DNA from: Promethearchaeota archaeon | GTDB taxonomy: Archaea; Asgardarchaeota; Odinarchaeia; Odinarchaeales; JBHLKK01 | Assembly (NCBI GenBank): GCA_048939465.1 | Contig: JBHLPL010000001.1 | Span: 23,562-87,561 of the forward strand | DNA: 64,000 nucleotides | Direction: 5' to 3' | Shown: piece by piece, positions 40,634 to 63,636 of the stretch | How positions within the stretch are numbered: the stretch's first letter is position 1 | How the letters are laid out: every line of letters begins with the position of its first letter | The notes under the pieces: generated by a model | Databases searched by the model: none | Told to the model about the DNA's origin: nothing | What the model saw: the letters and a program-made list of their open reading frames with translations, nothing else | Made by a program: the position numbers and the translations under genes

Positions 40634-41689
40634 TTATGTGTAAAATCTATCTCTCTGTCTTTGTCTCTCTTCTAAGAAACTCACAAAGTCACTTAGGGTC
40701 GGATCATTCTCAAGTTCGTCGTGAATCAGTTCGGCTACGCTCAGAATTGATGCTGCAACATGTGCCTTGACTTGTTGTGTTTTCTTGTCGTCGGGCTTCA
40801 GGAAACTCATTATTCTTTTTTGAAACTGCTGTAGAGTCAGCAACCTATCAACCAAAAGACCGAATGATTTCATAATGTTCTCTCTTGTGGCTGAAGCATC
40901 CTCCTTTATTCCTACTGCTTCCATGGCACGAAGACATGGATATAATATCTCAGAGCCAAACCAATTTACCAGAAGGCCTCTTTTGTCTATGGTCTTGAGA
41001 AAAACCGATAGTGGAATCCCAAGTTCTTTTATTCTATTCTTCGCCAGCTGGGCCGCTTTTTCTAGCCCTACTTCATGTGTGGCCTTAAGAACCCCTACCA
41101 TGATTGAACTGACGGCAATGGAAAGAACCCTCCTGAGATTGTTGGCTTCCAACAGCTTGTTGATTAGCTCCTTTGCTTCATCCAGATTAATGTCTGATAT
41201 GACAAATGATTTTACGATTTCCAAAAGCTGACCTCTGACCTCTAAGCTTTTCCCGTAACCTGTTCCGTCCAGGGCAAGTAGAGTATAGGCAGTCTCAAGT
41301 ATTTCTTTATCAAACCATTGCACGACCAGGTATTCATTTGTAACCCTTCTCAAATCTGTGGCGGTCTTAACGTCTTTGAGTATATGTGCTAGCCGTTCAA
41401 TAAACGTTTCAAAAATCGCAACTATGTATTCTTGGACATTTGCGTCTATTCCGTATCTCTTCAACTCTTTTTTTATAATCTTTCTAAAGCCGGACTCGGT
41501 TATCTCTCCCTTCAAGTATTTAATGAACGGAGCAAAAAGATCTTTTTTGAGATTGTCCAAAGAGGGCGGCTTGAGTTCCCTGACTAGCCTCTCAGTCATT
41601 CCCCACACTATGAAATAGTAGAAGTCTCCCATTGCCTTATAGTATTCGCTAGCGAATTCCTCACCCAATTGCTGCTCACCTCTCATCAA
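40634..41689 (-). CDS. hypothetical all-alpha protein (operonic partner of HerA-like ATPase)
   Basis: 351 aa; overlaps upstream ATPase gene by 14 nt, suggesting co-translation. Confidence 0.4.
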   Translation of the reverse strand: MMRGEQQLGEEFASEYYKAMGDFYYFIVWGMTERLVRELKPPSLDNLKKDLFAPFIKYLKGEITESGFRKIIKKELKRYGIDANVQEYIVAIFETFIERLAHILKDVKTATDLRRVTNEYLVVQWFDKEILETAYTLLALDGTGYGKSLEVRGQLLEIVKSFVISDINLDEAKELINKLLEANNLRRVLSIAVSSIMVGVLKATHEVGLEKAAQLAKNRIKELGIPLSVFLKTIDKRGLLVNWFGSEILYPCLRAMEAVGIKEDASATRENIMKSFGLLVDRLLTLQQFQKRIMSFLKPDDKKTQQVKAHVAASILSVAELIHDELENDPTLSDFVSFLEERQRQRDRFYT

Positions 41690-44324: not shown

Positions 44325-44939
44325 TCATGACCTGCTTTCCTTTAGTTTCTTAATTTCTTTTTCCAGCTCTGAGACCTTCTTCTCCGGTGCTGGAAGAGCA
44401 ATACCTGTTTCAACAGTTATCTCCTGATCGATTTCGGTCAACGTTTTTTCAATTTCCTTATCACTAATCTCTTGCGAAACCGTGATTTCGAGTCCTGATT
44501 CAGCGATCTCTTTCGACACCTCAAATTGCTGTAGCTGACCTTCAACTTCTTTAATCAATTTGGCTATCTTTGGTACCTTCACAGCGTTCTTAAGTCCCCC
44601 AAGGACGTTACGGAGACTACCTAATATTTTGGACAAATCAGTAACAGATTCGCTTTGTCTGAGTTTTACAATTAGTCCCTCTATGGTCAATCTGTAGTTG
44701 TCAATGCCAACTGCCCACTTCTGAAATTGCAGGTAATGCTTTGCGTACGTCTTTGCAGCCTCATTATTGCCCTTGATACGTTGAGTTCGAGCTTTAGTAC
44801 GGCTCTTGTCGCCTTCTCTTTCCAGTTGCATCCTTTGTCTATCGAGTTTCCGTGTGAGCAAATCCAACTGAAAAATGGCCTTCTCAAGCCTTTTTCTCTT
44901 AGACCCCCCTAACCAGTCAAACAAACGGCCTAACGACAA
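44325..44939 (-). CDS. ESCRT-III (Snf7/CHMP family; Vps2/24/46-like)
   Basis: 204 aa; basic N-terminal helices (KRKRLEKAIFQLDLLTRKLDRQRMQLERE...KGNNEAAKTYAKHYLQ) and acidic C-terminal helices with E/I-rich tail; Snf7-like charge asymmetry. Confidence 0.6.
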   Translation of the reverse strand: MSLGRLFDWLGGSKRKRLEKAIFQLDLLTRKLDRQRMQLEREGDKSRTKARTQRIKGNNEAAKTYAKHYLQFQKWAVGIDNYRLTIEGLIVKLRQSESVTDLSKILGSLRNVLGGLKNAVKVPKIAKLIKEVEGQLQQFEVSKEIAESGLEITVSQEISDKEIEKTLTEIDQEITVETGIALPAPEKKVSELEKEIKKLKESRS

Positions 44940-45100: not shown

Positions 45101-46264
45101 TTGGGATTGATGTCTGATAAGCTGTTCAAATACGCCACCCAGATGGCGAAGGAAGCTGTGAAACTTGACAAGCAAGGCAAACAGAAGCTGGCTGTACAGA
45201 AATATATTCATGCGGCCGATATCTTGATGAGGTTTCTGAAATTAACCGAGAATCCCGCACTGAGAAAAGTATGTTATGAAAAGGCGGAGCAGTATGTGCA
45301 AAGAGCTAAAGAACTACAAGGTGTAACACCAGGTCTGCCGGCAGTATCAGAAAAAGCAGCGGGGAAAGCGCTGACCAAGGAAGATCAAGCCCTCCAAGAA
45401 GCAATCTCGGATACCATAATCACTGAGAAACCAAGTGTTGAATGGGAAGACGTAGCAAATCTAGAGACGGCAAAACAAGCCTTGAGAGAGGCTGTTATCT
45501 TACCGATGCTCAGACCAGATATTTTTACTGGTGCAAGGGAACCTTGGCGTGGATTATTGTTGATCGGACCACCCGGATGTGGAAAAACACTGCTCGCAAA
45601 AGCTGTGGCGAACGAATGCAACGCAACATTCTTCAGCGCTGACGCAGCCTCTTTGGTTTCAAAGTGGCTGGGAGAATCGGAAAAACTTGTAAGCACATTA
45701 TTTACCGTTGCACGAAGTAGCTCCCCTTCCGTTGTGTTCATCGACGAAGTGGATGCTTTGGCAACAGTTAGATCGGGTGATGAGGTTGGAGGTGAGCGGA
45801 GAATGAAGACGCAGCTATTAATAGAAATGGATGGGGTTCGAAAACGAAAGGGAGAGCAAGTAGTAGTTCTTGGCGCCACGAACAGGCCATGGGATCTTGA
45901 CCCGGGTTTTCGTAGAAGGTTCGAAAAAAGAATTTATGTGCCCCTTCCTGATAAGGAAGGCCGTCGCGAGATATTTAAGATTCACGTCAGAGGAATTGAA
46001 ATAGCTTCAGATGTTGATTTTGATGAACTAGCGACTCTTACTGAGGGATACTCCGGCTCAGATATTGCGCTGATATGTAGGGATGCTGCCATGATGCCAA
46101 TACGTGAACTGGATACCGCAGGCACGTTGACTAGGAAAGATATCAAAGTTCGATCGGTAGATCGTGAGGATTTTCTGAAGTCCATGAAAAAGGTTAGGCC
46201 AACTGTTTCACCAGACGAACTGGAGAAATACGAGGAATGGACCAAAGAATTCGCATCAGAATGA
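45101..46264 (+). CDS. vps4: Vps4-like AAA ATPase (N-terminal MIT domain)
   Basis: MIT-like three-helix N-terminus (LDKQGKQKLAVQKYIHAADILMRFLKL...AEQYVQRAKELQ); AAA Walker A GPPGCGKTLLAKAVA; Walker B VVFIDEVD; second region of homology. Confidence 0.85.
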   Translation: MGLMSDKLFKYATQMAKEAVKLDKQGKQKLAVQKYIHAADILMRFLKLTENPALRKVCYEKAEQYVQRAKELQGVTPGLPAVSEKAAGKALTKEDQALQEAISDTIITEKPSVEWEDVANLETAKQALREAVILPMLRPDIFTGAREPWRGLLLIGPPGCGKTLLAKAVANECNATFFSADAASLVSKWLGESEKLVSTLFTVARSSSPSVVFIDEVDALATVRSGDEVGGERRMKTQLLIEMDGVRKRKGEQVVVLGATNRPWDLDPGFRRRFEKRIYVPLPDKEGRREIFKIHVRGIEIASDVDFDELATLTEGYSGSDIALICRDAAMMPIRELDTAGTLTRKDIKVRSVDREDFLKSMKKVRPTVSPDELEKYEEWTKEFASE

Positions 46265-46278
46265 ACTGGTGATATATA

Positions 46279-47025
46279 TTGTCGGTAAGGGAAAAGCCAC
46301 GTAAAAAAGCTGGGAAGTCTCAAAAGGAAGAAACTGACAAGAAGGAGCGAATCAAAGAAGAGCTTGAGGAACTCAAGGAAGAAGTTGAAACAATGGTGGA
46401 GGCAGAAGAAGCTGAGACAATAGAAGAGGTTGAGAAAATCCAAGAGCCTAGCGCTAGGCAACTTCCGAAGGCGGTTGCTGAGGAAATCTCCTCTGAATTG
46501 GAGAAGATCTGTAACTTATATGAATGGGTTGCAAATCCTGAACAAGTCAGATGGATGTATTGGATGCCCTCCAATAAAGAGCATATTGATTCATGGAGAG
46601 ACGAATGGGCTGATTTCTTGTTTCAATGGGCCCGAGCAAAAATCCTTCATATAGTAACACTGGTCTTGCTTATGGGTGAACACCCATTTGATAAGTTATC
46701 TCCAAAGGTGGATTCGCTGAGAGTTATTATGAAAACCCTAGCTGAGAAGGATCTTGCTGAATTCTTGGATAATAAAGAAACCAGATTGCGAATATACTGG
46801 AGGACTCTTAATGAGTGGGCAGAAATAATCTATAACTGGGCACTCAATACCGGAAGAATGGATATAAGTGTTTTTGATGTTATTAATGACAGAGGGGAAA
46901 AGTGGGGCTTTCACACGCTGCCAGCGAAAGAAATTAGACTCATCTTCAGGATTATGGTAGAGCGTGGGTTGGCCCGTTGGATGGACGAGAAGAGAGGCCA
47001 TATTGAGATAAGAGTAGACTTTTGA
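46279..47025 (+). CDS. Vps25-like ESCRT-II subunit (tandem winged helix) with acidic N-terminal extension
   Basis: IYWRTLNEWAEIIYNWALNTGRMDISVFDVIND ~ human VPS25 IMWRRPEEWGKLIYQWVSRSGQNNSVFTLYEL; C-terminal HTLPAKEIRLIFRIMVERGLARWMDEKRGHIEI ~ HGLDEATLLRALQALQQEHKAEII..DGRGVKF. Confidence 0.6.
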   Translation: MSVREKPRKKAGKSQKEETDKKERIKEELEELKEEVETMVEAEEAETIEEVEKIQEPSARQLPKAVAEEISSELEKICNLYEWVANPEQVRWMYWMPSNKEHIDSWRDEWADFLFQWARAKILHIVTLVLLMGEHPFDKLSPKVDSLRVIMKTLAEKDLAEFLDNKETRLRIYWRTLNEWAEIIYNWALNTGRMDISVFDVINDRGEKWGFHTLPAKEIRLIFRIMVERGLARWMDEKRGHIEIRVDF

Positions 47026-47145: not shown

Positions 47146-50100
47146 GTGGTCGTCATGCAAGCCAAAAGAAAAAATCTGCTAATATCTCTGGTCTTCACAC
47201 TATTTCTGATCTCAACGCTCTCATCAATTACAGTTCCACCCGTCACAGCTTCTCCAGATACTGCTGACTGGTGGAATTATAACTGGAATCAGAGGGTTCC
47301 AGTGATGATAAACACAACAGGTCACAACACATCCGACATACCGATAAAGATCGAAGGAATTAATTTCACTCAGCTTCTACTGGATCTGGGTGTCGGCTCT
47401 CCCCACGATAATAACTCGGTAAGAGTCGTGGAGTGGAACGTAGCATCGGAACTGAACACTGAATTACCGAGCTTATTTGCTCCTGCAGGCACGTATGACA
47501 GCTCCAGCAATGCTGTAGGTGATGTTTACTGGACAATGAATGGAACAACACTTGAAAACACAAACAGAACCTTCTATGTATACTTCGATACTACTGATGC
47601 TCCTGGTGGTCCCAAGAGCCCACCAAGCTACAGTGTGGATCCTCGTCTACCTGAAGGAATAGCCTATGTAAGAAACGCTAAGGACGATATATCTTATGAA
47701 TCGGCCCAACAACTTGCTGCGGAATATGGGCTCGCCCAAGCTGCACTGTTCAATGAAAGCGTGAAATCAGGAAGTCATTACAGGAGCGGATCGGGTTGGC
47801 AAAACAACAGTATAGATCTCGTACCTGATGACTACTCAATGATAATACTTGGGTCAGACTCCCTAGACGGTGGCGAAATACCTGGAAAACTCGATATAGA
47901 CTCCCAATTCAGATCAAACTTGGAAGCTTTCATTGCTGGCGGCGGGATACTTGTTATTCAACAGATAACGTCAAGCGATCCTGCCCAGCCACTGACTGGA
48001 ATTCAGTTCACAAGCTCTCACGGAGAAAGCTATAAGAAACCACTGCAACAGCACGAAATCACAACTAATCCAAACAATATTCGAACTGAAAATCTCAATT
48101 CGCTTTCAGATGGATTTGATAAAATTACGGACTCTACTCGCTACTCTTCGATAGCCAACGTGACAGATAACGGCGGAGGTCCAACAGGCCATCGAATCAG
48201 AATCATTCAGAGAGGAGCAGGCTATGTTATTGTAGAGGTACTGGGATGGACCTCAACTGGCGATATAGATAAGTGGAAACAGATCTTTGAAAACTATCTG
48301 AATTATCATATCAACCACACAAAGGATAGTCTGGCCATAACCGTTGGCAGCCAAGCAGAATATAGTCTGATTAACGATGTTACCGTAGTTGTAACAAATC
48401 ATGAAGGATTATTCGTTCCTGACGCAAATGTTACTATGGTCAACACGACAGCCCAGGCAAACAATCTTAGTGGCTACAACCAATGGGCATTAACAGATAG
48501 CAACGGCCAAGTTTTCTTCCCGGATGTACCAGATAACAACTATAATGTTACGGCAACTTACGTAACTAACATGGGAGATAGCACCGGAATTCTGAACGAT
48601 ACATTTTCAAACTTCAACATCAATTATACTCAAACCCTCAATCTTAAAGTAAACATTACAAGGCTATTAGTGAACATCACTGATGTAGATAATATGACCC
48701 AGTATGATCTGATACCTAACTGGGCAGAACATTATATCGTTGGCCTTTTCAACCAGTCCGATGGGAGTCCGATGGCCAACACAACGACAACAACCTTGTA
48801 CGAGTCTGGTGGTATTAACTGGCTTGTAGGAGAACTCTGGTGGCATAATTCATCGGACAATCATGTGATCAAAGTATTGTATGAGCATCCTGATTATTCG
48901 AATACACTGACTCTTAACGAGACTAGTAACATACAACTTGATGTTTCGACTTCCTTCAACGTCAACGTCAGTATGACAAGGCTGACTGTTTTTGCCCGTG
49001 GGTATCCGACCATCGATCCGCTTGTTAATGTGGTTCTTGAGTTGAGCAACGATACGCAAGCAATAGCTAATGTCACAGCAGACGATTCAGGAGCGGTAGT
49101 CTTCTACTGGAGGACTCAACCCTCGCAGAATTACTCTATACGCGCATTCTACTTCGATACACTGGTCTCATTCATCAAATTCCATGAAAGCTGGTCTGAT
49201 TGGAATGAAAGCGTTAGCCTACCACTTCCAAATGCTACCGAAAAGCTGATTGATATTCAGCTGGGTGCGGAGTATGAGACGGATCTTGTACTAACTGCTT
49301 TTACCCCCGACGTCACGTATGGGGATAACGTAACGGTCACCGTGTATTTCAATGTCACAAGTCCTTCGCCAAGACCCGTAACTGGAGCAACCGCCAGATG
49401 CTACCTCAGAGTGGGAACAACAGATATCTTTATGGAAACAATGACTGAGGCAGGTTCCGGATATTATACACTGACATTCAACACGACTCACTACGGTGGC
49501 ATAATAGGCGATGAAAACATAGAATATCGTATCTTAGTAATTGTTGAAAAATCAGGGTATACCTCTCCTACGCCGATATTCACCGACCTGACAATCAGGG
49601 GGCTCGCAACAACTTTGGATTGTTCAATCTCACCAGAAACCATTTACTGGGGCGACCTCATAACAGTAGACGTTACGTACGAGGATTTGGAGGACGCAAC
49701 AGTCTCATACATAATTGGAAGTTGGGATTCTGGCGTATTCAGTGATCTTGGAAATGGAAACTACCGCACCTCGATAGACACCTCTAAATCGTCCTTCTGG
49801 GGAGACTACATATTAAAAATAACTGCCGAAAAGCCGAATTATGAAATGAAGTACGCAGAAATAGCTCTTAGAATCAATCAGATACAGACTCTGATAAACG
49901 GATCTCGTATACTTGTCACATCACCCATCAGCGTGTATGCAATGGAAGACAGTTTAATACACTTCAACTACACAACAGCTGGCAATATCGGCATCAACTC
50001 GACAGTCCATCAGTACTACTGGGAGAGCATATCAAGCGGTAGTGGCTACGGAGACTTGTCTTATCTTGGGAACGGTATGTATGGGCTGGATTTTGATACT

Positions 50101-51102
50101 TCGAACAGATTTGTTGATGAATACACAATTGCTGTTATATTTGAGAAATCGAATTATGAGGCAAGAACTGCTACATTCAATCTGAAGGTACTCGGGAGAC
50201 CCGCAGATTTTGAAACCGTCAGTTCATCCGTTTCAGCTGCTCACGGTAATGAGGCAACATTCAGCTTCCACATTTCAGATGCTCTAACCGGTCTTCCTCT
50301 TGAAAATGTGTCCATAGTCCTAGACTGTAGCATAAATCCGGCATATTTGTCTTGGATTAATGGTAGTGGATGGTATAACCTAACCATACTCACTGCAAAT
50401 CTTTCGCCCGGTTCATACGATATCAAATTGGTCATTACTCAATCAAACTACACAACTGAAGTCGAAAACGTTCATATGACCGTTGAATATGAAAGAATCC
50501 TTGGGATGCCTTGGCCTTCATTTATTCTAATGATTTCATTCATAGCTGGTGCCGTTGCTGCTACTGGGGGCCTTTTCAGATTCTACACTTGGAAGAAAGT
50601 ACCGCCTCTTGTCAGGAACATCAATAAGAGCCTCAAACACATGCAGCAAGGAGAAGTTGTAAACATAAAAAAGACGTTTCCAGACACAAAGGATAGGGAC
50701 TATGTTCTCGGAGAATTCCTGAACGAAGAGCTGGAGATTCTGGGAATAAGATCTGCAGCCTATGGGGAAGAAGGTTCTCAACTGCTCTCCATAGTTTCGG
50801 CGGCGACTTCATCCGAAACCGAAACAACGGAGTCTGAAACGCAGGTTATCAGGGCAGCGGAATCTGAGACTTTGCCTGAACCGGAAGCAACACAACCTGA
50901 AATGAAGGAATCTGAAGCAATGCCAAAAGAACCAGTCGAAGAACTTGAGGTAACCAAGGAACCTGAAATAGAGAAACCGGAGAAGAAAAAGCCTTACTCG
51001 GCAAAAGCCGGACCTAAGAGGCTAAAGACCAAGAAAACAGAAAAGAGAGAATCGAAATCAAGGTCAGGGAAGTCAAAGGCAAAAAACAAGGTGCAGAAAT
51101 AA
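47146..51102 (+). CDS. large N-glycosylation-sequon-rich surface protein (type I membrane topology, long cytoplasmic tail)
   Basis: signal peptide (LLISLVFTLFLISTLSSITVPPVTASP); >60 N-x-S/T sequons; beta-rich repeats; single TM (ILMISFIAGAVAATGGLF) near aa 1115; ~200-aa acidic then Lys-rich tail. Confidence 0.6.
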   Translation: MVVMQAKRKNLLISLVFTLFLISTLSSITVPPVTASPDTADWWNYNWNQRVPVMINTTGHNTSDIPIKIEGINFTQLLLDLGVGSPHDNNSVRVVEWNVASELNTELPSLFAPAGTYDSSSNAVGDVYWTMNGTTLENTNRTFYVYFDTTDAPGGPKSPPSYSVDPRLPEGIAYVRNAKDDISYESAQQLAAEYGLAQAALFNESVKSGSHYRSGSGWQNNSIDLVPDDYSMIILGSDSLDGGEIPGKLDIDSQFRSNLEAFIAGGGILVIQQITSSDPAQPLTGIQFTSSHGESYKKPLQQHEITTNPNNIRTENLNSLSDGFDKITDSTRYSSIANVTDNGGGPTGHRIRIIQRGAGYVIVEVLGWTSTGDIDKWKQIFENYLNYHINHTKDSLAITVGSQAEYSLINDVTVVVTNHEGLFVPDANVTMVNTTAQANNLSGYNQWALTDSNGQVFFPDVPDNNYNVTATYVTNMGDSTGILNDTFSNFNINYTQTLNLKVNITRLLVNITDVDNMTQYDLIPNWAEHYIVGLFNQSDGSPMANTTTTTLYESGGINWLVGELWWHNSSDNHVIKVLYEHPDYSNTLTLNETSNIQLDVSTSFNVNVSMTRLTVFARGYPTIDPLVNVVLELSNDTQAIANVTADDSGAVVFYWRTQPSQNYSIRAFYFDTLVSFIKFHESWSDWNESVSLPLPNATEKLIDIQLGAEYETDLVLTAFTPDVTYGDNVTVTVYFNVTSPSPRPVTGATARCYLRVGTTDIFMETMTEAGSGYYTLTFNTTHYGGIIGDENIEYRILVIVEKSGYTSPTPIFTDLTIRGLATTLDCSISPETIYWGDLITVDVTYEDLEDATVSYIIGSWDSGVFSDLGNGNYRTSIDTSKSSFWGDYILKITAEKPNYEMKYAEIALRINQIQTLINGSRILVTSPISVYAMEDSLIHFNYTTAGNIGINSTVHQYYWESISSGSGYGDLSYLGNGMYGLDFDTSNRFVDEYTIAVIFEKSNYEARTATFNLKVLGRPADFETVSSSVSAAHGNEATFSFHISDALTGLPLENVSIVLDCSINPAYLSWINGSGWYNLTILTANLSPGSYDIKLVITQSNYTTEVENVHMTVEYERILGMPWPSFILMISFIAGAVAATGGLFRFYTWKKVPPLVRNINKSLKHMQQGEVVNIKKTFPDTKDRDYVLGEFLNEELEILGIRSAAYGEEGSQLLSIVSAATSSETETTESETQVIRAAESETLPEPEATQPEMKESEAMPKEPVEELEVTKEPEIEKPEKKKPYSAKAGPKRLKTKKTEKRESKSRSGKSKAKNKVQK

Positions 51103-51175: not shown

Positions 51176-51922
51176 TTATGAGTTTTTACTTGCCTTGCCT
51201 CCTAGCCCGGGAAAGTAGTACTTTTCTCCTCTTGAATAGCTAGGATCCATTCTGGTAACCTTGGCTTTTTTTAATGCCTCTAATGCTCTTTTGACTCTGG
51301 TCTCGTTCCACCCGGTTTTCACCATGATTTCCTCAGGAGTCGTCCAGCCTTTCTCGCTTGCAATGTTCAATATCTCATTCTGATCATTTCCCAGCTCCAC
51401 AGAAATGAATTGAACAACCTTCACGTCTGACTTCAACTTCATGATTCCTGGTATCATATCTTCTTCTTCCATTTTCCTTATGGCCTTCATAACATCCTCT
51501 ACTGATATCTTTCCCTTGATCATTCCTGTGTTGACCAATAAAACAGCTTCTGGAATTGTCATAATTCCACCTGTTTCTTGCCTTCTCATCAGGGCTCTCT
51601 GATAAAGAAGCAAACCCAGTTTCTCATGATCAACTTTAGTTCTGAAAAATCCCTTCCTCACCACATCCTCTTCTCTCACAATCTGGGTAATAATAGCGCT
51701 TTTGGGAATACCGAACTTCTTTCTAATCTTTTCAACTTCCGAGCGGAACTCGGGATTTATGTCGAGCAGGATTCCATACTTCTTGACTATCTCTACCAGC
51801 TTTTCCCTCGTACGCTTGGCCATTTCAAGCTCGCTTGCCATATTCTGAAGTCTCAACTCAACGCCTTTTTCTTCCAAGGCTCGTTTTGCTCTCATCTCCT
51901 TCTCAATTTCGTAAAGACCCAA
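51176..51922 (-). CDS. Vps22-like ESCRT-II subunit (EAP30 domain)
   Basis: tandem winged-helix EAP30-like pattern: GGIMTIPEAVLLVNTGM...ISVEDVMKAIRKMEE...ILNIASEKGWTTPEEIMVKTGWNETRVKRALEALKKAKVTRMDPSYSRGEKYYFP. Confidence 0.55.
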   Translation of the reverse strand: MGLYEIEKEMRAKRALEEKGVELRLQNMASELEMAKRTREKLVEIVKKYGILLDINPEFRSEVEKIRKKFGIPKSAIITQIVREEDVVRKGFFRTKVDHEKLGLLLYQRALMRRQETGGIMTIPEAVLLVNTGMIKGKISVEDVMKAIRKMEEEDMIPGIMKLKSDVKVVQFISVELGNDQNEILNIASEKGWTTPEEIMVKTGWNETRVKRALEALKKAKVTRMDPSYSRGEKYYFPGLGGKASKNS

Positions 51923-52729
51923 TCAAACGCCCCCCTCGGACACTTCCTTCAGCTTAGCTTCAAAGTCTTTAAGCCATCTATCCGCTTGGAACCCAAGCCT
52001 TTCGGCCTCCTCTTCACTGACAGTCTCGCTTGGTTTTCGAGACTTAAGCCTGTCGCGCCATTCTTCAATCTCCTTGATAACCCAGTACTTCGCATTGAAT
52101 CCAGGAAATCTCTTCATAATACTCAGAAGCTCGTCTAGTCGTGGAACAAGCATATCAACTCTTGCTACGTCCTTCAGTCTTGTAAGATCCATCACAGTAA
52201 TCAGATTCGTTGTGATGTCGAGCGTTTTAGAAGCGACTGTTGCAGGAGAAGCTGTCAAAATCTCTAGAAGAGCGCCTGTCTCACCCTCTGCAAGTTTTAG
52301 TTTATTGATCGCCAAAGGAAACTCCCTTACTATTCCTTCATCTTCCAAGAACTTGGCAACGTCGATATTCAGTTCTTCCAATCTGCCTTTAGCCTTGAAT
52401 GCGCCTGTCATTAGCGCTCGGACTTGACGCTTGTACATTGCTGGCTCTATTCTGGCTTCCTTGAAACTCTCGATTATGGATTCCAGTGTTGCGATGCATG
52501 CATAGAGTTCTGCCTGTTTGTCAAGAACGTATTTTCTCTGGGAAGGACTGAGCCTCTGAAGTGCTTCAGACTCCCCCCCTCGAACCGACTCGCTTAGTGT
52601 CGATTTGTATTCCGACGCAGTTGAGCTGTTTTCAAGGGGCTCTTTTGGGGCTTCTTCTTTTTTCTTTTCCTTTCTTTTCTTTTCTGCCTCGGATGTTTCA
52701 CGCTTTCTGGTTACTTCCATCCCGTTCAC
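51923..52729 (-). CDS. Vps28-like ESCRT-I subunit
   Basis: AELYACIATLESIIESFKEARIEPAMYKRQVRALMTGAFKA ~ human VPS28 [42 protein letters not shown]; C-terminal ITVMDLTRL ~ ITVMDKLRL four-helix-bundle region. Confidence 0.6.
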   Translation of the reverse strand: MNGMEVTRKRETSEAEKKRKEKKKEEAPKEPLENSSTASEYKSTLSESVRGGESEALQRLSPSQRKYVLDKQAELYACIATLESIIESFKEARIEPAMYKRQVRALMTGAFKAKGRLEELNIDVAKFLEDEGIVREFPLAINKLKLAEGETGALLEILTASPATVASKTLDITTNLITVMDLTRLKDVARVDMLVPRLDELLSIMKRFPGFNAKYWVIKEIEEWRDRLKSRKPSETVSEEEAERLGFQADRWLKDFEAKLKEVSEGGV

Positions 52730-52750: not shown

Positions 52751-53548
52751 TTACTTCTTCAGTTCCTCAAGCTTCTTGGTAACCAAATACAAGTCTTTCT
52801 TATAACGTTTATAGAGCTTACCATACTCTACGTCGCTGATTTCGCCCGATTCGTACTTCATCTCGAGGTTTTGCAGGAGGTCCTCAGTTGCGATCTTTTC
52901 ACCCTCAAGGTCCAATATCCTCTCTTCTTTTGGGTCGCCAAGTTTGGGGGCCTCATGTTGGCCTGAAAGCGAAATGCTTCGAGCGTCCATCGCTCCGCGT
53001 ATTCTGGCCAGTTCCTCGTCCTTTTTCTGCATAACATCTCTCAATCTTAACGTTTCTCTCTCAAGGTTCAGAACCTTTGATTGGAGTTGTCTAACGCCTT
53101 CCGAAACCGCGGCTGTAGGTTCCAGAGCAGTTGTGGCTGTTGCGGGGGCAGAAACATATATGGGTCTGGGCGGCTTACGTGCAAAGAGACCTTTCAGTGT
53201 ATTGACAACCTGATGGATGTGATATTCTGGACGCCATTCGGAGAGTATTTTCAGGCTAACTTCTCCGGATTGCCTATTGATCTGGGGGTGATCTGTCGGC
53301 GTAATCATTTTCACACTAGGCGCTGACCTTGGAAAGTCATCAGGTAATGCTATCTCAACTTCGAATCTCCTCTTCGCGTGTTGTCCTCTACCCGGTATGG
53401 AACCTCTCCAAAGCCTCAGGTTTCCTCTGACTGGAGTAAATTCCTGCGCTCGTCTGTACATGAGTTGGGCTTCTTTAGCAACAATCAATTCAGCATCTTC
53501 AGACAAGTGATTGCCTCCCTTTTGGGTTTTTTCAAGAATAATTATCAA
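52751..53548 (-). CDS. UEV-domain protein (Tsg101/Vps23-like ESCRT-I subunit; catalytically inactive E2 fold plus coiled-coil stalk)
   Basis: UBC-fold region FPRSAPSVKMITPTDHPQINRQSGEVSLKILSEWRP with HP(N) motif but the E2 catalytic Cys replaced by Ser (EVSLKIL vs RICLGIL in the true E2 at 37924..38364); C-terminal coiled coil. Confidence 0.55.
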   Translation of the reverse strand: MIIILEKTQKGGNHLSEDAELIVAKEAQLMYRRAQEFTPVRGNLRLWRGSIPGRGQHAKRRFEVEIALPDDFPRSAPSVKMITPTDHPQINRQSGEVSLKILSEWRPEYHIHQVVNTLKGLFARKPPRPIYVSAPATATTALEPTAAVSEGVRQLQSKVLNLERETLRLRDVMQKKDEELARIRGAMDARSISLSGQHEAPKLGDPKEERILDLEGEKIATEDLLQNLEMKYESGEISDVEYGKLYKRYKKDLYLVTKKLEELKK

Positions 53549-55806: not shown

Positions 55807-56649
55807 CTAAACTTTGCGGTTTATAATCTTTTCTTTTGTATGACTAATAATCATCGCTGTCTTTTTCCCTTCTTCTTTCCTCCTGTCCGAGGCAACCTCG
55901 TGGTTAGTGTTTTGGGTCTCTTTTGCTTCCATCTTCTCCCCCGAGATCTCTTCCTTTCTTTTCTCCTTGGTTATGAATGAACCCCAATCTATTCTGAGCA
56001 TCAGATAGACCAATAGAATCGTTCCCAAAATTCCTATCACGGTACCTGCTGTGCCCCCGCCTCCAAATAATGCTTCAACCAGCGGCCGGAAAAACCTCCC
56101 TCCGTAAGCCAAGATTGCGCATAGAACTATCTTCCCCAAAATGGCTGCGACAACCGCTTTGACAATGCTATACTTCATTACGCCTACAGGGATAAGAAGC
56201 ATATCATCAGGTAAAGGCGTAGCTGCGAACAAGAATATTGCTGCAAATCCATACTTCTCAATTAACTTCTTCATGGATTCTATTCTCTTACCGTATTTTT
56301 CTTCGATTAGCTCCCTTCCTCCCCGCCCTATCGCATAGGCGCTCAATTCTCCAATAGCTGCGCCAAATCCGCAGACTAATGCAAGTATCAGCGGCTCAAT
56401 AAACTCCTGGGTTCCCAGAAGGATTACAGCCAGAGCGTAGGGAACGGGTAGGAAAACTGTGAAGTTGCCAAAGGTGGATATTAGGAAGGCCCCGAAATAG
56501 ACAGACAGTGGACTTCCCACAGCAAAGTTGAACATCCCAATCGTTAAGCTGTCAAAGAAATTGGCAATAGCTTCTATTGAAAACAGAACCACCAATGCTA
56601 TTCCGGTGATTACAAAAGCTATTATGAAAATAATGTCTCGACGTTCCAT
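55807..56649 (-). CDS. DedA/TVP38 family membrane protein
   Basis: DedA core: AYAIGRGGRELIEEKYGKRIESMKKLIEKYGFAAIFLFAATPLPDDMLLIPVGVMKYS (G-R-x-x-G ... re-entrant P-containing helices); ~6 TM. Confidence 0.55.
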   Translation of the reverse strand: MERRDIIFIIAFVITGIALVVLFSIEAIANFFDSLTIGMFNFAVGSPLSVYFGAFLISTFGNFTVFLPVPYALAVILLGTQEFIEPLILALVCGFGAAIGELSAYAIGRGGRELIEEKYGKRIESMKKLIEKYGFAAIFLFAATPLPDDMLLIPVGVMKYSIVKAVVAAILGKIVLCAILAYGGRFFRPLVEALFGGGGTAGTVIGILGTILLVYLMLRIDWGSFITKEKRKEEISGEKMEAKETQNTNHEVASDRRKEEGKKTAMIISHTKEKIINRKV

Positions 56650-56719: not shown

Positions 56720-57685
56720 ATGACTATTTCCACTCCGAATTCTCCGTTAACCTTGATGGAGGATATACTGCTGGCAGAGCTTAAGGCCCTTGTAGAAATA
56801 ATTCGGTTGCCCAATTGCCTCATGGGTAGCTTGACCACGTCGATTTCCGTATTGACAGTAGACAGCATCCTAGACCTGACAGCCGGAGTAAGCCTGTCCG
56901 CTGTTAGCCTCATCTGGTTGCTTGTTATTGCCTATATTACTTACGTCTTTGCAGCGGCTGCAGGGAACGTTGTAAATGACGTATTCGATATCGAAGTAGA
57001 CAGGATAAATCGGCCAAATCGGGTGCTTCCAAGAAGAGCACTAACTGTGCGTCAAGCTAAGATATACACAATTCTGCTTTGGCTGGCCTGTTCATTCTGC
57101 GCCTTCTTAACAAGCATCCCGGCTGGAATTATTGCTACAACCTTTTCACTAGTTGGTTTCGGTTATGCATCAAGGGCCAAACTGCTAGGAATATGGGGGA
57201 ACTTCACCGTTTCGTTTTCTTTTGCCTTTGGTTTGATTTACGGCTCTCTAATAACTTATTATGCCGCTTTGGGCACGCTGGGTCTCCCCCTCCTAATATG
57301 GCTTTACTTCTTCACGGCGTTCTTTATCCTTCAGGGCAGAGAAGTGATTAAGGGGATGGAGGATGTTGAGGGTGACCGAGTGAGGGGTGTGAAAACCGTA
57401 GCTTTGGTTTACGGCTTTAGGAGGGCATCTATCGTGGCTGCTCTTTTCAATATCATAAGCATGATTTGCTTCACAGCCGCGTGGTTTCTGAGTTGGTCCG
57501 GCTGGTCGTCCTTACCAAATATCTGGTACACCGTTTTTCTATTACCCGGCGATGGTATTGTGCTGGCTTCTACAATCTTGATCTTAATGAAATCATCTTC
57601 ATCTTCAGCTCAGAATAGAGCCAGTTTCTATTCCAAAATAGGAAGTCTCCTAGGTCTGTTGGCATTCTTGGTAGGAGCACTATAA
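56720..57685 (+). CDS. UbiA-family prenyltransferase (DGGGP-synthase-like)
   Basis: Asp-rich motif NDVFDIEVDRINRPNRVLP (NDxxDxxxD); 8-9 TM helices; second Asp-rich region EDVEGDRVRGVKT. Confidence 0.8.
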   Translation: MTISTPNSPLTLMEDILLAELKALVEIIRLPNCLMGSLTTSISVLTVDSILDLTAGVSLSAVSLIWLLVIAYITYVFAAAAGNVVNDVFDIEVDRINRPNRVLPRRALTVRQAKIYTILLWLACSFCAFLTSIPAGIIATTFSLVGFGYASRAKLLGIWGNFTVSFSFAFGLIYGSLITYYAALGTLGLPLLIWLYFFTAFFILQGREVIKGMEDVEGDRVRGVKTVALVYGFRRASIVAALFNIISMICFTAAWFLSWSGWSSLPNIWYTVFLLPGDGIVLASTILILMKSSSSSAQNRASFYSKIGSLLGLLAFLVGAL

Positions 57686-57902: not shown

Positions 57903-58760
57903 ATGATTCATTCGGTTTATGTAATCCGAAGGACAGGAGAATGCCTATTCTCCAGAGTATATGATAAGAACGGAATCGACGAAGCCCTAATATCCGGCTT
58001 CTTAAGCGCTCTACAATCTTTCATAAATGAAATCAGTGGAGATTATGTAAGGACTCTGAAAACTGGAAATGTGAAATTTGTCTATAATTTACTGGATGAT
58101 CTGATATTCGTATTCTGCGTCGATCTAGAAGAAGATGAGGAAAAACTGAGAAAGAAGATAAATCTCACTCAGAGTGTCTTCGTAAGGAGATTTGGCAGCA
58201 TAATAGAAGGCTGGAATGGTCAAACCAGCATCTTCGAATCCTTCAATGTAACAGTAGATGACATTGTTACAGATCTCGTAAAGGTATCCGTAATTGGATT
58301 TGGGGGTGTCGGTAAGACGACTCTCCTCAAGCTTATTCTAAGGGAAGAAGTTCCCGTACAACACATTCCAACAATAGCGGTTGATATCAAAGATCTTAAC
58401 GGTGTAAAATCCCCGGCAAAGGTGGTCATGTGGGATTTTGCTGGACAACAGCGTTTTGAATCCCTTTGGGATGTGATGATTAAAGGCTCAGACGTTATTC
58501 TAATTGTTACGGATTCTTCCATGTTAAATATAGTAAAGACCAAGAAAAAAATCATCTCCCTCATTAAAGAGCATAATCCCGGCGCGAGAGTTATTGCTAT
58601 TGCAAACAAACAAGACCTTCCGAATTCGATAAAGCCAAGAGCAATTAGTGACCTTCTAGGCGTACCGGTTTATGGAATTGTCGGCATAGACCCTTCAAAT
58701 CGAGGGCAATTGCTTGAGATAATAGGCGATACTGTTAATAGCTGGCTAGAATATTCATAA
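57903..58760 (+). CDS. roadblock/longin-like domain fused to small GTPase
   Basis: N-terminal ~100 aa MIHSVYVIRRTGECLFSRVY...ISGFLSALQSFINEISGDY (roadblock/LC7-longin-like); GTPase G1 GFGGVGKTTL, G3 WDFAGQQRF, G4 ANKQDL; ~60% identical to GTPase core of 39182..39913. Confidence 0.7.
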   Translation: MIHSVYVIRRTGECLFSRVYDKNGIDEALISGFLSALQSFINEISGDYVRTLKTGNVKFVYNLLDDLIFVFCVDLEEDEEKLRKKINLTQSVFVRRFGSIIEGWNGQTSIFESFNVTVDDIVTDLVKVSVIGFGGVGKTTLLKLILREEVPVQHIPTIAVDIKDLNGVKSPAKVVMWDFAGQQRFESLWDVMIKGSDVILIVTDSSMLNIVKTKKKIISLIKEHNPGARVIAIANKQDLPNSIKPRAISDLLGVPVYGIVGIDPSNRGQLLEIIGDTVNSWLEYS

Positions 58761-59838: not shown

Positions 59839-61644
59839 ATGAAGACTGTGAGAATCTGCAATTTTTGTGGAAGCAGAGAAGCAACTCATTATTGTGAGGA
59901 GTGTGGAGCCTCATTCTGCAGCAGGTGCGCAAGAAAGAAGAAGATCCAAATTAGCATATGTGTAAATTGCGGTGCATCTGTTGACAAACTCAGAAAACAG
60001 AGTAGTATTACGGCCTGCAATGACTGTAATCCGTCAAGCACAAAATCTGCGATAAAATACATAACCCTATGCCCTGATTGCTCTTCAAAGACGGTAGTAC
60101 GCATCAAGAAAAAAAACCATGATTTGTTGATCAAACTCAAAAGTGCAGTTTCAAGTCTTATATCCGGCTACTATATCCTAAAACAATTTTTGGCTGAAGT
60201 GAATACCGTACGGCGCAGGATAGTAGCAATGAGGTATTATGGATTTAGACAGTATCCTGAACTCGAAAAGACATTGATTGCTGTCTATTCTGAAGTTCAT
60301 ACGTTGGGTCAGAACTTTGTCAATACAGTATTCAAAACATTACAGGGAGTAGATTCTGAATTGCTTGTGGTTCTAAGGAAGAGACCATGGGACTCCAAAG
60401 ATTTTCCCTCGGTAGAATCTCTGACAGAACAACTTAGAAAAGATGGACAGATGACTCAGAAAGACTTGATGAACAGACTAACTGATTTAAGACAGCTATT
60501 TATCGACCTTCTTCCTCTAATTGGGTCTCTGGAGTACTTCAGACAAGTGTACGATAGCATAGGGGAGCATTTAATCCTTGATAAGTATGAGAGAATCATC
60601 TGTGCGTTTAGCAAGGTGTCTCTGTCATCGAACTCATCCAAGCGGAGCAAGAATAACGGAACCTTGGTTCTTACAAACCGCAGAATAGTTCTTCATCAAC
60701 AAGCAAAGGGAAAAGGGGCTTTCAATGTAATTGGGGCAAGATTGACTGATTTAAACTCCTATCATGTCGATGAAACAGATGGAAGAATAACTCTGGAAAC
60801 AACGAATGGTAGAACGGAGTTCCTTGTTTCACAGAATGCTGCGAGTTTATTCAAGAGATCTCTAGAGGTAACCGACCGATACGACGGGAATTTAGTAGAT
60901 TTGGATCGCTTAAATCGTCTCATTAATATCCAGTGGGTTTCTTCGGAGTTATATCGTCTGAATAAGAAACTGCAGCTAGAGGTTCTCAATGTGCTGGGGG
61001 AGAAACCCAGACTTCTCGATTCAGCAGTTGTTGCTACATCTGTCTTTAGAGAGTACTCAAATGACACTCCTGAGCCACCGCAGGAGGGGCCAAATGTCTC
61101 GTTTGGGATCAAGAAAGACGATCCCAAAGAGGCCATGAATTCGGAATCTTATAAGGGAACCAAGCCGGCAGGCGTTATTCGTCGCATTGTGAATTTATTT
61201 AAGAATAATAGAAATCGTGAATTATCCGATCTAGTTCTGGAAATTGGCAGAAAGAACAGAACCAATACGGGCGGGATGGTTCCTTTAGCTGAAGTGTACC
61301 TATCGATAAAAGAACTCAGACCTAATCGGAACATCGATGTTGAGGAAGTTGAAAAAGCAATTGAAACACTTAAAGAAAAAGGACTTATAGTTGATTTTAG
61401 GGAACATAACTCTGGAATAAAAGTTGTTGAGTTCTTTCCATTAGAGTTCAGTAGTGATAAGAATACTGTTATAGATTTGGCAGCAGAAAGAGGTCACCTG
61501 ACGCTTGAGGATGTCATACGCAATACGGGATGGTTAGGGGTCAGAGCTGCAAGAGCACTTAAAGGGTTAGAGAAAATTGGGATAGCCAAGCTTGACCCTA
61601 CATATTCTAGGGGAAAGCGTTGGTATTTCCCATACCTGAAATGA
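59839..61644 (+). CDS. Vps36-like ESCRT-II subunit (N-terminal zinc ribbons, GLUE/PH-like domain, C-terminal EAP30-like winged helices)
   Basis: CNFCGSREATHYCEECGASFCSRCA / CVNCGAS / CNDCNPS / CPDCSSK zinc-ribbon pairs; GRAM/GLUE-like GTLVLTNRRIVLHQQAKGKGAFNVIG...ITLETTNGRTEFLV; C-terminus TLEDVIRNTGWLGVRAARALKGLEKIGIAKLDPTYSRGKRWYFP paralogous to 51176..51922 C-terminus. Confidence 0.55.
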   Translation: MKTVRICNFCGSREATHYCEECGASFCSRCARKKKIQISICVNCGASVDKLRKQSSITACNDCNPSSTKSAIKYITLCPDCSSKTVVRIKKKNHDLLIKLKSAVSSLISGYYILKQFLAEVNTVRRRIVAMRYYGFRQYPELEKTLIAVYSEVHTLGQNFVNTVFKTLQGVDSELLVVLRKRPWDSKDFPSVESLTEQLRKDGQMTQKDLMNRLTDLRQLFIDLLPLIGSLEYFRQVYDSIGEHLILDKYERIICAFSKVSLSSNSSKRSKNNGTLVLTNRRIVLHQQAKGKGAFNVIGARLTDLNSYHVDETDGRITLETTNGRTEFLVSQNAASLFKRSLEVTDRYDGNLVDLDRLNRLINIQWVSSELYRLNKKLQLEVLNVLGEKPRLLDSAVVATSVFREYSNDTPEPPQEGPNVSFGIKKDDPKEAMNSESYKGTKPAGVIRRIVNLFKNNRNRELSDLVLEIGRKNRTNTGGMVPLAEVYLSIKELRPNRNIDVEEVEKAIETLKEKGLIVDFREHNSGIKVVEFFPLEFSSDKNTVIDLAAERGHLTLEDVIRNTGWLGVRAARALKGLEKIGIAKLDPTYSRGKRWYFPYLK

Positions 61645-61689: not shown

Positions 61690-62238
61690 TCATCGCCTTC
61701 CCTCGCGGGAACGGCGGTAAGATCCCCTACTGTAGGGTCTTCGTCTTGGTCTAAATCGGTCCTGTTCATATTGTTTTTCGGAGAGATTGTTCTCTGTGTT
61801 TACATCGCCAAACTCGGCATCCTCAAATGACTCAATCGTACCATATCTACCGATATTTAATCGCAAGGATCCCTTGAATACTGTACAGTATCCGTTGTTG
61901 ATTTTGTATATCTGATCTATTTCCACCTTGTCAATGTCCTGATTCCAAAGAGTTAAGTACACGCTACCAGTCTCGTCACCCACCAGAGCTTCGGTGACTC
62001 TTAGTTGTTCACCTGTCTTTCTTGAGAATACCTCTCTTGCCTCATTCTTAGAGGCTACCTTAACTTTTACGTTTACACCTCTAGAGTTCGGATTTAGCTC
62101 TTCTACGACTACAAATTCCTCAGATTCGCTCATTTTAGTTACATCTCTATTCATATACTTTGTTCGTTTAACAAGGATAGCAAAACAAGTCCCTAGAGCA
62201 AGTTTTACATCCTTAAGCGGTATCGGGTTAGATTCCAA
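61690..62238 (-). CDS. OB-fold single-strand nucleic-acid-binding protein (SSB/RPA-like) with Arg-rich tail
   Basis: VNVKVKVASKNEAREVFSRKTGEQLRVTEALVGDETGSVYLTLWNQ...YKINNGYCTVFKGSLRLNIG OB-fold pattern; C-terminal RRRPYSRGSYRRSREGRR. Confidence 0.5.
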   Translation of the reverse strand: MESNPIPLKDVKLALGTCFAILVKRTKYMNRDVTKMSESEEFVVVEELNPNSRGVNVKVKVASKNEAREVFSRKTGEQLRVTEALVGDETGSVYLTLWNQDIDKVEIDQIYKINNGYCTVFKGSLRLNIGRYGTIESFEDAEFGDVNTENNLSEKQYEQDRFRPRRRPYSRGSYRRSREGRR

Positions 62239-62279: not shown

Positions 62280-62927
62280 TTACTCTTTTTCTTTTTCCTC
62301 TTCTGGTATGTCTTCTTTAAGCCCTTTCTTAATATCTTCAAGTTCCTTCCGTATTTTGTCCTTCTTCTTTTCAGCGACAGCCTTCTCTTTTTCGGTGGGA
62401 ATCTCAGGTAACTCTTCTTCTATGGCCACTTCCTCTTGAAGTTTTGCTAACTCCCTCTCTACGTCAATGTCTTCGCCTTCATCCAAAGCTGTGGCACTTA
62501 ACATCTCACTGGTTTTCTCTATCTCATCAACCAGTTGTTCAGTTTTTAGCATAACTTCAGTAGCTTTCTCACTTGACATAAGTCTTCTTGCTTCTTCAAG
62601 TTGTTCAAGACCAACTTCAAGGGCACGTCCCATGTCGGCAGTATCTCTAGCAGTCTCGATCATATCAATAACATCTTCTAGGCTGCCTACCTGTCTATGA
62701 TAACGATTCATCCATGTGGTATATCTTTTCCATTTTCGAAGATGTGTCCTTGCCCCATCTGTGTTTCCTTGCCTTACAAGCTCTCTTGCTCTCTGCTTGC
62801 TTTCTCCTGCCTTTCTTTCAAATCCACGAACTCTGAGTGTCATCTTGTTGATTGTTGCACGCATTTCTGTAACTGCTTCGTCTCTGCTTTCCTTTTTCTT
62901 GGGGAATAGCTTCCTCAGAAAACCCAA
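62280..62927 (-). CDS. ESCRT-III (Snf7/CHMP family; Vps20/32/60-like)
   Basis: 215 aa; N-terminal MGFLRKLFPKKK basic start, basic helices (ARELVRQGNTDGARTHLRKWKRY), acidic C-terminal half ending in EEL..EKEKE; Snf7 organisation. Confidence 0.6.
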   Translation of the reverse strand: MGFLRKLFPKKKESRDEAVTEMRATINKMTLRVRGFERKAGESKQRARELVRQGNTDGARTHLRKWKRYTTWMNRYHRQVGSLEDVIDMIETARDTADMGRALEVGLEQLEEARRLMSSEKATEVMLKTEQLVDEIEKTSEMLSATALDEGEDIDVERELAKLQEEVAIEEELPEIPTEKEKAVAEKKKDKIRKELEDIKKGLKEDIPEEEKEKE

Positions 62928-63636
62928 ACAACTTCACCTCATCAATACTAGAATTGACATTTTGAGCTTATTATACTTTACTTTTTAGTTCTCCTATTTC
63001 TAAACCTTATGCTCTGTCGAAAGGAGCACTGAGTCTCCTCATTCTTTCTTATCGTCTTTGCCTATTTCCCTTATTAGCGGCTTTTCCTCCTTCAGTCCGA
63101 GAATTCTGAACTTGGGGTATTGCTTTTCCAATTGTTCTCTCAGTCTTTCTTTATTTACGTTTCCGTGCGTTTCAACATTAACAATCGGTCTGTCGCCTTC
63201 GTATGTTACTTGAATCGGATAACCGCCTGCACCGCCAAAATCGTCGTTCAGAAATCTCTTTTCTAAGGCCTCAGATAATCCGAAATCTTCATCAAATGGA
63301 TCAGAAATGGTTCCCTTTTTTTTCTTTTTGCCTAAAGGGTTCCCCCCCTGCTGAAAAATATACCCAATTATCTTATGATTTACGGAAAAATAAAAAACTA
63401 ATGGTTTCCGATAAGGTTTATCGTTTGAGGGTTAGGTATGGTTTCCTAGAAATGCTTTTCATCAGGGAATTCGCATACTTCCCGCATGTGGGTGGTTTTG
63501 CTGTCACTGAAGGGAAAATCGAGGAAGCACGGGAGAGGAGATTGAGAAGGCTTGGGAAATAAGTTCACGAGGGCTGTCAAGAGGGATTGTTATACGTCTA
63601 TGATCGACTCAATGAGTTGAAGGACCAGGAGGAATT

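Follow-up and report, generated by a model that had tools for sequence, protein, structure and literature searches.

A very probable B-type ESCRT-III subunit encoded in a ubiquitin-ESCRT locus of a Hodarchaeota-like Asgard archaeon

[quoted passage not shown] The question raised by this locus is whether the two genes, located at 62280..62927 and 44325..44939 of the window, represent two distinct classes of the family, as claimed in an earlier note made from the sequence, and to which class the first of them belongs. We find with high confidence that the gene at 62280..62927 encodes a B-type ESCRT-III subunit (ESCRT-IIIB, Vps20/32/60-like, CHMP4-7-like) of a Hodarchaeota-like Asgard archaeon, hereafter IIIB, while its paralog, hereafter IIIA, is of the A-type.

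The IIIB gene

The gene and its putative ribosome-binding site are the following.

62280..62927, minus strand: IIIB coding sequence (B-type, Vps20/32/60-like), identified from the open reading frame (ORF), Pfam, PDB, subfamily hidden Markov models (HMMs) and the ratio of nonsynonymous to synonymous differences (pN/pS)
62934..62940, minus strand: Shine-Dalgarno-like motif GAGGTGA, ending 6 nt before the IIIB start codon (read from the sequence)

The ORF codes for 215 aa with the N-terminus MGFLRKLFPKKK, in exact agreement with the coordinates and N-terminal sequence given in the earlier note. The start codon is TTG, and an in-frame TGA stop, which overlaps the Shine-Dalgarno-like motif, is located directly upstream. 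A scan for orthologous loci with the single IIIB protein recovered only two close loci, both from public metagenome-assembled genomes (L001, 'Candidatus Hodarchaeota archaeon', and L002, 'Promethearchaeota archaeon'), and both TTG and GAGGTGA are kept in each of them. At 86-88% nucleotide identity to these orthologues the pN/pS of IIIB is 0.08-0.09, and therefore it is a real gene under strong purifying selection. A scan for sigma-70 promoters, a model unsuited to archaeal promoters, and for terminators revealed nothing above shuffle expectation, and the minus-strand frame upstream of IIIB (about 63038-63300) contains no start giving an ORF of at least 40 aa and has no family match. The N-terminal half of the protein is basic (isoelectric point 10.5, net charge +10) and the C-terminal half is acidic (4.5 and -17), as had been noticed earlier; such polarity, linked to autoinhibition and membrane binding, is expected of the Snf7 family.

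Family membership and class

IIIB matches the Pfam family Snf7 (PF03357) with 71.7 bits (cutoff 27.3; E 7.5e-20), the alignment covering profile positions 1-170 of 171. The best sequence match in the PDB found by phmmer is the ESCRT-IIIB filament of Heimdallarchaeota AB_125 (9ftl, E 2.9e-17), followed by the Loki 'Vps20/32/60-like' protein (9fn1, E 1.1e-11), whose alignment with IIIB begins residue 1 to residue 1 (the Loki N-terminus is MGLKKKLFPRKK). Weaker matches were obtained with yeast Snf7 (6.6e-4) and CHMP1B (just 0.39), and CdvB is absent among the PDB sequence matches at E<=10. The Pfam search gave no PspA_IM30 match for IIIB.

Charged residues make up 38% of the protein, the tail is rich in Glu and Lys, and there are weak chance matches to the helical families TPR, CENP-K and mS63, so the protein might be viewed as a generic charged coiled coil matching Snf7 spuriously through its low-complexity Lys/Glu-rich helices. 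This explanation is close to impossible, given that the Snf7 profile is aligned almost from end to end, that one subfamily HMM is preferred by 34 bits, that specific motifs are conserved, that the top matches in both fold and sequence are orthologous Asgard structures, and that the gene has ESCRT neighbours; it is refuted by the Snf7 profile, the PDB matches, the class HMMs and the motif alignment. A spurious coiled coil, a CdvB-type protein and a PspA/Vipp1-type protein were all rejected as identities of IIIB on the basis of Pfam, PDB, the class HMMs and Foldseek.

The paralog is encoded at lower window coordinates.

44325..44939, minus strand: ESCRT-IIIA (A-type, Vps2/24/46-like), 204 aa (Pfam Snf7 8e-14, PDB matches, A-type HMM)

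The distance between the two genes, previously given as about 17 kb, is 17,341 bp, and their products are 20% identical. The best PDB matches of IIIA are CHMP1B (6.8e-7), CHMP2A (2.8e-6) and CHMP3 (2.9e-5), and Snf7 is not matched in the PDB sequence search. The protein carries a C-terminal LEKEIKKLK resembling MIT-interacting motif 1 (MIM1; a Leu/Ile heptad in the terminal helix) and lacks a phi-P-x-phi-P motif. Judged by its sequence, this paralog is ESCRT-IIIA. No third gene of the ESCRT-III superfamily was found in the window by phmmer against all stop-to-stop frames or by Pfam searches with essentially every long ORF.

The class of both proteins was evaluated with A-type and B-type HMMs made from eukaryotic references only. 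Nine references were confirmed by name through exact look-up, namely CHMP4B, CHMP6, CHMP5, Vps20, CHMP2A, CHMP3, CHMP1B, Vps2/Did4 and Vps24; the yeast Snf7 reference sequence was inexact and was left out of both the HMMs and the tree. IIIB scored 45.3 bits with the B-type HMM and 11.0 bits with the A-type HMM, a preference of 34 bits, while the paralog scored 21.5 and 60.4 bits, respectively. When 1.84 billion cluster representatives were searched exhaustively, just 175 relatives of IIIB were obtained at E<=1e-3 and 5 at E<=1e-30, indicating that its sub-lineage is sparsely sampled. In 145 of the 149 representative homologues listed out of these 175 the B-type HMM scored higher than the A-type HMM, and about 50 of the 149 exceeded 100 bits with the B-type HMM, being eukaryote-type CHMP4-7 relatives.

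A neighbour-joining tree of 36 sequences and 206 columns separated the paralog and the five A-type references from IIIB, the four B-type references and the Asgard-like matches in 212 of 300 bootstrap replicates. IIIB belongs to a clade of Asgard proteins, which lies outside that comprising CHMP4B, CHMP5, CHMP6 and Vps20. In published maximum-likelihood trees the A- and B-type clades have 100% support, and Asgard ESCRT-IIIB is co-orthologous to CHMP4-7 (PMC11804906). The position of IIIB on the B side but outside the eukaryotic B-type clade therefore identifies it as Asgard ESCRT-IIIB, which on this placement is a co-orthologue of all eukaryotic B-type proteins (CHMP4-7) rather than of Vps20 specifically. 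The Snf7 HMM search and phylogeny proposed in the earlier note thus place both proteins in the Snf7 family and in different subfamilies, and its claim of two distinct ESCRT-III classes holds on the eukaryote-only HMMs, the bootstrapped tree and the best matches among solved structures.

Domain organisation and motifs of IIIB

Four elements can be recognised in the protein.

62892..62927, minus strand: N-terminal amphipathic/basic motif MGFLRKLFPKKK (alpha0), a candidate for membrane insertion (homologue alignment, AlphaFold2)
62388..62879, minus strand: Snf7 core, residues 17-180, with the alpha1/alpha2 hairpin, alpha3-4 and alpha5 (Pfam, AlphaFold2, Foldseek)
62397..62411, minus strand: LPEIP, residues 173-177, resembling MIT-interacting motif 2 (MIM2), a putative binding site for the Vps4 MIT domain (homologue alignment)
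62313..62393, minus strand: C-terminal helix alpha6, residues 179-205, with the conserved KELEDIKKGL (AlphaFold2, alignment)

The AlphaFold2 model of IIIB was built from a 7-sequence alignment and has a mean predicted local distance difference test score (pLDDT) of 75, reaching 86-96 over residues 21-120. Alignments for modelling were shallow because the word-index search gave 7 homologues for IIIB and 3 for a 601-aa neighbouring protein described below. The model comprises alpha0 (residues 3-7, low confidence), two helices at 16-52 and 56-92 forming the alpha1/alpha2 hairpin, alpha3-4 (96-140), alpha5 (150-172), an unstructured linker (173-177) and a terminal helix (179-205), which is the layout expected for ESCRT-III, with its alpha1/alpha2 hairpin, alpha3-alpha5 and C-terminal region. 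In a Foldseek comparison with the PDB, 9ftl and 9fn1 (Loki CHMP4-7 rods) rank first, followed by PspA, CHMP1B and Snf7; the other matches include 7abk (PspA) and 9s9j (CdvB). The root-mean-square deviations are large because the closed IIIB model is set against open filament subunits.

The N-terminal motif is kept as MGxxxKLFPKKK across the homologues of IIIB. Its resemblance to the N-termini of CHMP6 and Vps20, pointed out earlier, is genuine but has no diagnostic value for the class, since a hydrophobic-LF-G/P-basic N-terminus occurs in both classes: in the A-type CHMP2A (MDLLFGRRK), CHMP3 (MGLFGKTQEK), Vps2 (MSLFEWVFGK) and the IIIA of the window (MSLGRLFDWLGGSKRKR), and likewise in CHMP4B, CHMP5 and CHMP6. 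The motif supports membership in ESCRT-III and says nothing about the subclass. Position 2 of IIIB is glycine (62922..62924, minus strand), as it is in 19 of the 41 full-length Asgard-like homologues. This share, in sequences where start-codon calls of metagenomic proteins are uncertain, was judged to be well above chance without a computed expectation, and it recalls the myristoylated Gly2 of CHMP6/Vps20.

The MG start with a basic N-terminus as in CHMP6, the Gly2 shared with these homologues, and LPEIP, which is nearest to LPEVP of CHMP6, would be the features expected if IIIB were an orthologue of Vps20/CHMP6, that is, a specialised nucleator, perhaps carrying a lipid at its N-terminus, with the other paralog as the polymeriser. 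Such an assignment is very unlikely. In the tree IIIB does not join Vps20/CHMP6 and branches outside the clade in which the four eukaryotic B-type references are united, the N-terminal motif is also present in A-type CHMP3 (MGLFGK), CHMP2A and Vps2, and the other paralog is A-type and not Snf7-like. We are not aware of any account of protein N-myristoylation in archaea. The published phylogeny, in which Asgard ESCRT-IIIB is co-orthologous to CHMP4-7, also speaks against a Vps20/CHMP6 orthologue (PMC11804906).

Between alpha5 and the terminal helix, the LPEIP motif of IIIB aligns with LPEVP of CHMP6, LPNVP of CHMP4B and LPSLP of Vps20, and P174 is invariant. The proline-rich motifs of Asgard Vps20/32/60 proteins have been described as MIM2-like motifs that 'do not fully conform' and bind the Vps4 MIT domain, and Asgard Vps2/24/46 proteins as carrying MIM1-like helices that bind the same domain (PMC7240154, Lu 2020). 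The pattern seen here, with LPEIP in IIIB and a MIM1-like helix in IIIA, matches this description at the level of motifs. The KELEDIKKGL segment of the terminal helix is aligned to KELENWAGSM of CHMP4B and has the consensus KELEELKK across Asgard homologues.

Genomic context

Both IIIB and IIIA lie inside a 26-kb super-locus for ubiquitin, ESCRT-I, ESCRT-II, ESCRT-III and Vps4. The ESCRT genes, which include a core operon of Vps4, IIIA and Vps25, are listed below.

45101..46264, plus strand: Vps4 AAA ATPase with an N-terminal MIT domain (Pfam MIT 4.3e-12, AAA 7.5e-42, Vps4_C 1.5e-12)
46279..47025, plus strand: Vps25-like ESCRT-II subunit (Pfam ESCRT-II PF05871, 2.8e-12)
51176..51922, minus strand: Vps22-like EAP30 protein of ESCRT-II (Pfam EAP30 2.5e-16)
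51923..52729, minus strand: Vps28-like protein of ESCRT-I (Pfam VPS28 8.2e-17)
52751..53548, minus strand: UEV/E2-variant with a coiled coil, Vps23/Tsg101-like protein of ESCRT-I (Pfam UQ_con 5.7e-17, UEV 8e-07)

Vps4 would act as the disassembly factor for both ESCRT-III proteins, and the Vps25-like protein may be the recruiter of IIIB; a two-hybrid interaction between Vps25 and ESCRT-IIIB was consistently observed for Asgard proteins (PMC9192718). The ubiquitin-system operon and adjoining genes comprise the following.

36079..36864: Zn-ribbon and Yip1-domain membrane protein, flanking the operon
36932..37954, minus strand: E1-like ThiF protein of the operon
37924..38364, minus strand: E2 of the operon, the ORF overlapping that of E1 by 31 nt
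38541..38783, minus strand: ubiquitin-like protein of the operon, 80 aa, ending in TEGGDP
38799..39038, minus strand: stand-alone RING protein, 79 aa
39182..39913, minus strand: 243-aa fusion of a RING finger with an Arf/Roc-like small GTPase
40634..41689, minus strand: 351-aa ORF with no family match, overlapping the end of the HerA-type ATPase gene
41676..44282, minus strand: HerA/DUF87-type ATPase, 868 aa, with a long N-terminal extension, 42 nt downstream of IIIA

Both RING proteins, which adjoin the ubiquitin, E2 and E1 genes, share a nearly identical motif, CIVCLLPI...CPxCG...CPFCK.

Since ESCRT-III and Vps4 drive cell division in Sulfolobales (PMC7240154) and a gene for a HerA/FtsK-like ATPase is located directly downstream of IIIA, IIIB could act chiefly in cell division, as the CdvB proteins of TACK archaea do, instead of in ubiquitin-linked vesicle budding. 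We regard this as unlikely but worth keeping in view: IIIB is embedded in a ubiquitin/ESCRT-I/ESCRT-II locus, CdvB is missing from its PDB sequence matches at E<=10, no CdvA gene is present in the window, and Pfam and the AlphaFold2 model show no CdvB-type C-terminal winged helix in IIIB. The proposal concerns the biological role alone and is compatible with the molecular mechanism outlined below for a B-type subunit.

The immediate neighbourhood of IIIB and the remaining genes of interest in the window are given below.

59839..61644, plus strand: 601-aa protein comprising three Zn ribbons, a coiled-coil region, a PH-like domain and EAP30 (two winged helices); this ESCRT-II paralog is separated from IIIB by one gene
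61690..62238, minus strand: OB-fold protein resembling single-stranded DNA-binding protein (SSB), whose tail RPRRRPYSRGSYRRSREGRR is rich in Arg, 41 nt downstream of IIIB
47146..51102, plus strand: 1318-aa protein between Vps25 and Vps22, whose sole Pfam match is a CarboxypepD_reg-like domain
57903..58760, plus strand: 285-aa fusion of a longin-like N-terminal domain with an Arf/Roc-like GTPase
55807..56649: VTT/DedA-family membrane protein near the longin-GTPase gene
56720..57685: membrane protein near the same gene, likened by size to UbiA-like prenyltransferases
32337..32744, minus strand: profilin homologue (Pfam 1.3e-6)
5090..5755 and 5831..6349, minus strand: tandem pair of Ras-family small GTPases (E 1e-50 to 1e-54)

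In L002 the gene order is the same: IIIB, then the SSB-like gene, a 605-aa Zn/PH/EAP30 gene, a phosphoesterase and a GTPase. The same-strand pairing of IIIB with the SSB-like gene is thus maintained there, and co-transcription of the two is possible; a functional link between them is not obvious. Hydrophobic segments are found at the N-terminus and near the C-terminus of the 1318-aa protein, N-x-S/T sites are numerous in it and its tail is rich in Lys and Glu; it is probably located at the surface. The profilin homologue and several GTPases of the Ras/Arf family, being eukaryotic signature proteins, are consistent with an Asgard genome.

Several observations weigh against the assignment of IIIB as a working B-type subunit. 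Its gene lies outside the Vps4/IIIA/Vps25 operon; the neighbour-joining method is simple and the support for the split between A and B moderate (71%); the confidence of the AlphaFold2 model is low at residues 1-12, 140-150 and 173-177; and the characterised ESCRT-IIIB of Heimdall AB_125 is just about 30% identical to it. In addition, LPEIP corresponds to the first half of the CHMP6 MIM2 consensus only, the downstream phi-P being missing, and for this reason the binding of Vps4 through this motif is putative.

The Zn-ribbon/PH/EAP30 protein

The 601-aa protein encoded one gene away from IIIB contains six CxxC pairs in its N-terminal part, which form three Zn ribbons, followed by a long helical/coiled-coil region and a C-terminal EAP30 domain. 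In Pfam it matches EAP30 (1.8e-11), Vps36 GLUE (1.8e-4, below the cutoff) and bPH_3, at best with 7e-6; bPH_3 and, below the cutoff, Vps36 GLUE are matched in all three known orthologues. The PH/GLUE-like domain extends over about residues 246-347, with six strands and a helix at 274-347. Three homologues were found by the word-index search (100, 75 and 64% identity), and the AlphaFold2 model (pLDDT 48) was too poor for fold comparison. The winged-helix part is nearer to Vps22 (5.5e-6) than to Vps36 (3.4e-3) in the PDB.

This Vps36-like architecture coexists in the window with the plain Vps22-like gene at 51176..51922. Asgard genomes have been reported to contain a single Vps22/36-like gene each and no full-length Vps36 (PMC9192718, Hatano 2022). 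Related Asgard-specific architectures, namely three Zn ribbons with SB and two winged helices, and Znr_CC_PH_SB, were described in a survey that found no domain architectures specifically common to Asgard archaea and eukaryotes (PMC11188069, Makarova 2024). The 601-aa protein is most likely an Asgard-specific fusion resembling Vps36, and not a demonstrated orthologue. It is conceivable, but decidedly improbable, that in the Hodarchaeota-like lineage Vps22, the Vps36-like protein and Vps25 form a heteromeric ESCRT-II of the eukaryotic kind, whose PH/Zn module would direct the nucleation of IIIB to membranes and to cargo carrying ubiquitin. If true, heteromeric ESCRT-II would be a derived architecture shared with eukaryotes, which was reported absent in published surveys. 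In a smaller variant of the same speculation, IIIB may carry two Vps4/Bro1-binding elements, LPEIP and the KELEDIKKGL helix.

Proposed mechanism

The analysis establishes to which family and class IIIB belongs, how it is built, which motifs it has and which partner genes accompany it, while the steps of its action are proposed by homology with Asgard and eukaryotic systems that have been reconstituted (PMC11804906, PMC9192718, PMC7240154). The N-terminal hydrophobic/basic motif and the basic alpha1/alpha2 hairpin of IIIB would bind a flat, negatively charged membrane, and the nucleation barrier would be passed, probably with the help of ESCRT-II/Vps25. IIIB could then open, polymerise into protofilament arrays, start membrane deformation and recruit IIIA, which, preferring curved membrane, would drive tube formation, constriction and scission. 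The MIT domain of Vps4 may engage LPEIP, and possibly the terminal helix as well, to extract IIIB subunits. That such proteins polymerise on membranes and remodel them was demonstrated with homologues about 30% identical to IIIB (PMC11804906, PMC11791191), and binding to Vps25 and recruitment of the A-type subunit are known from other Asgard proteins only. IIIB may serve vesicle budding that depends on ubiquitin, the repair of membranes, or division.

The earlier note had interpreted the pair as the minimum needed for the division of labour between nucleator and polymeriser. The pair of classes stands, but equating A and B with these two roles does not, because in eukaryotes both the nucleator (Vps20) and the main polymeriser (Snf7) belong to the B-type; what the division into A and B separates is late, executing subunits from early, initiating ones (PMC11804906).

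Comparison with known systems

IIIB belongs to the same family and class as the Asgard ESCRT-IIIB proteins of Heimdall AB_125 (9ftl) and Loki (9fn1, CHMP4-7) and aligns with them over its full length. The proteins are similar in length (215 versus 218 aa), in the MG..LFP.KK N-terminus, in helix layout and in the proline motif after alpha5, and have an equal set of partners, IIIA, Vps4 and Vps25. However, the sequence identity is just about 30% to 9ftl and 22% to 9fn1, and, unlike in the AB_125 and Loki systems, the gene is located 17 kb from the Vps4/IIIA/Vps25 core, beside the SSB-like and Zn-ribbon/PH/EAP30 genes.

With the eukaryotic B-type proteins (CHMP4/Snf7 (Vps32), CHMP6/Vps20, CHMP5/Vps60 and CHMP7) IIIB has in common the Snf7 fold, the charge polarity, the N-terminal motif, the phi-P-x-phi-P aligned with CHMP6, CHMP4B and Vps20, and the terminal helix aligned with alpha6 of CHMP4B. 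It differs in that one archaeal gene stands for four eukaryotic subfamilies (PMC11804906), in the partial agreement with the MIM2 consensus and in the low identity of 20-25%. The A-type proteins (CHMP1/2/3, Vps2/24/46 and Asgard ESCRT-IIIA) share with it the superfamily, the helical layout and a similar N-terminal motif, but the A-type HMM gives IIIB a score 34 bits below that of the B-type HMM, its identity to the IIIA of the window is 20%, and it carries the proline MIM2-like motif and not only a MIM1-like Leu/Ile helix. The alpha1-alpha5 ESCRT-III fold is also common to CdvB of TACK archaea and bacterial PspA/Vipp1, as seen with Foldseek. IIIB differs from CdvB in having no sequence match to it at E<=10, no C-terminal winged helix and no CdvA partner gene in the window, and from PspA/Vipp1 in lacking a Pfam PspA_IM30 match.

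Proteins 91-95% identical to IIIB have been deposited, one of them annotated as 'Snf7 family protein [Candidatus Hodarchaeota archaeon]'. The two classes of Asgard ESCRT-III were described phylogenetically (Lu 2020, PMC7240154; Hatano 2022, PMC9192718; Makarova 2024, PMC11188069), structures of them have been determined (9ftl, 9fn1), and the system has been reconstituted (Souza 2025, PMC11804906; Melnikov 2025, PMC11791191). IIIB is therefore an ordinary member of a known family, and the correct reading of the earlier note rediscovers known biology. The window adds one more, fairly divergent, Hodarchaeota-like ESCRT-III pair in a complete ubiquitin/ESCRT-I/II/III/Vps4 locus, which leaves the overall picture unchanged and is useful as comparative data. 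The 601-aa Zn-ribbon/PH/EAP30 protein is more unusual than IIIB itself and could bear on whether a Vps36-like ESCRT-II subunit predates eukaryotes.

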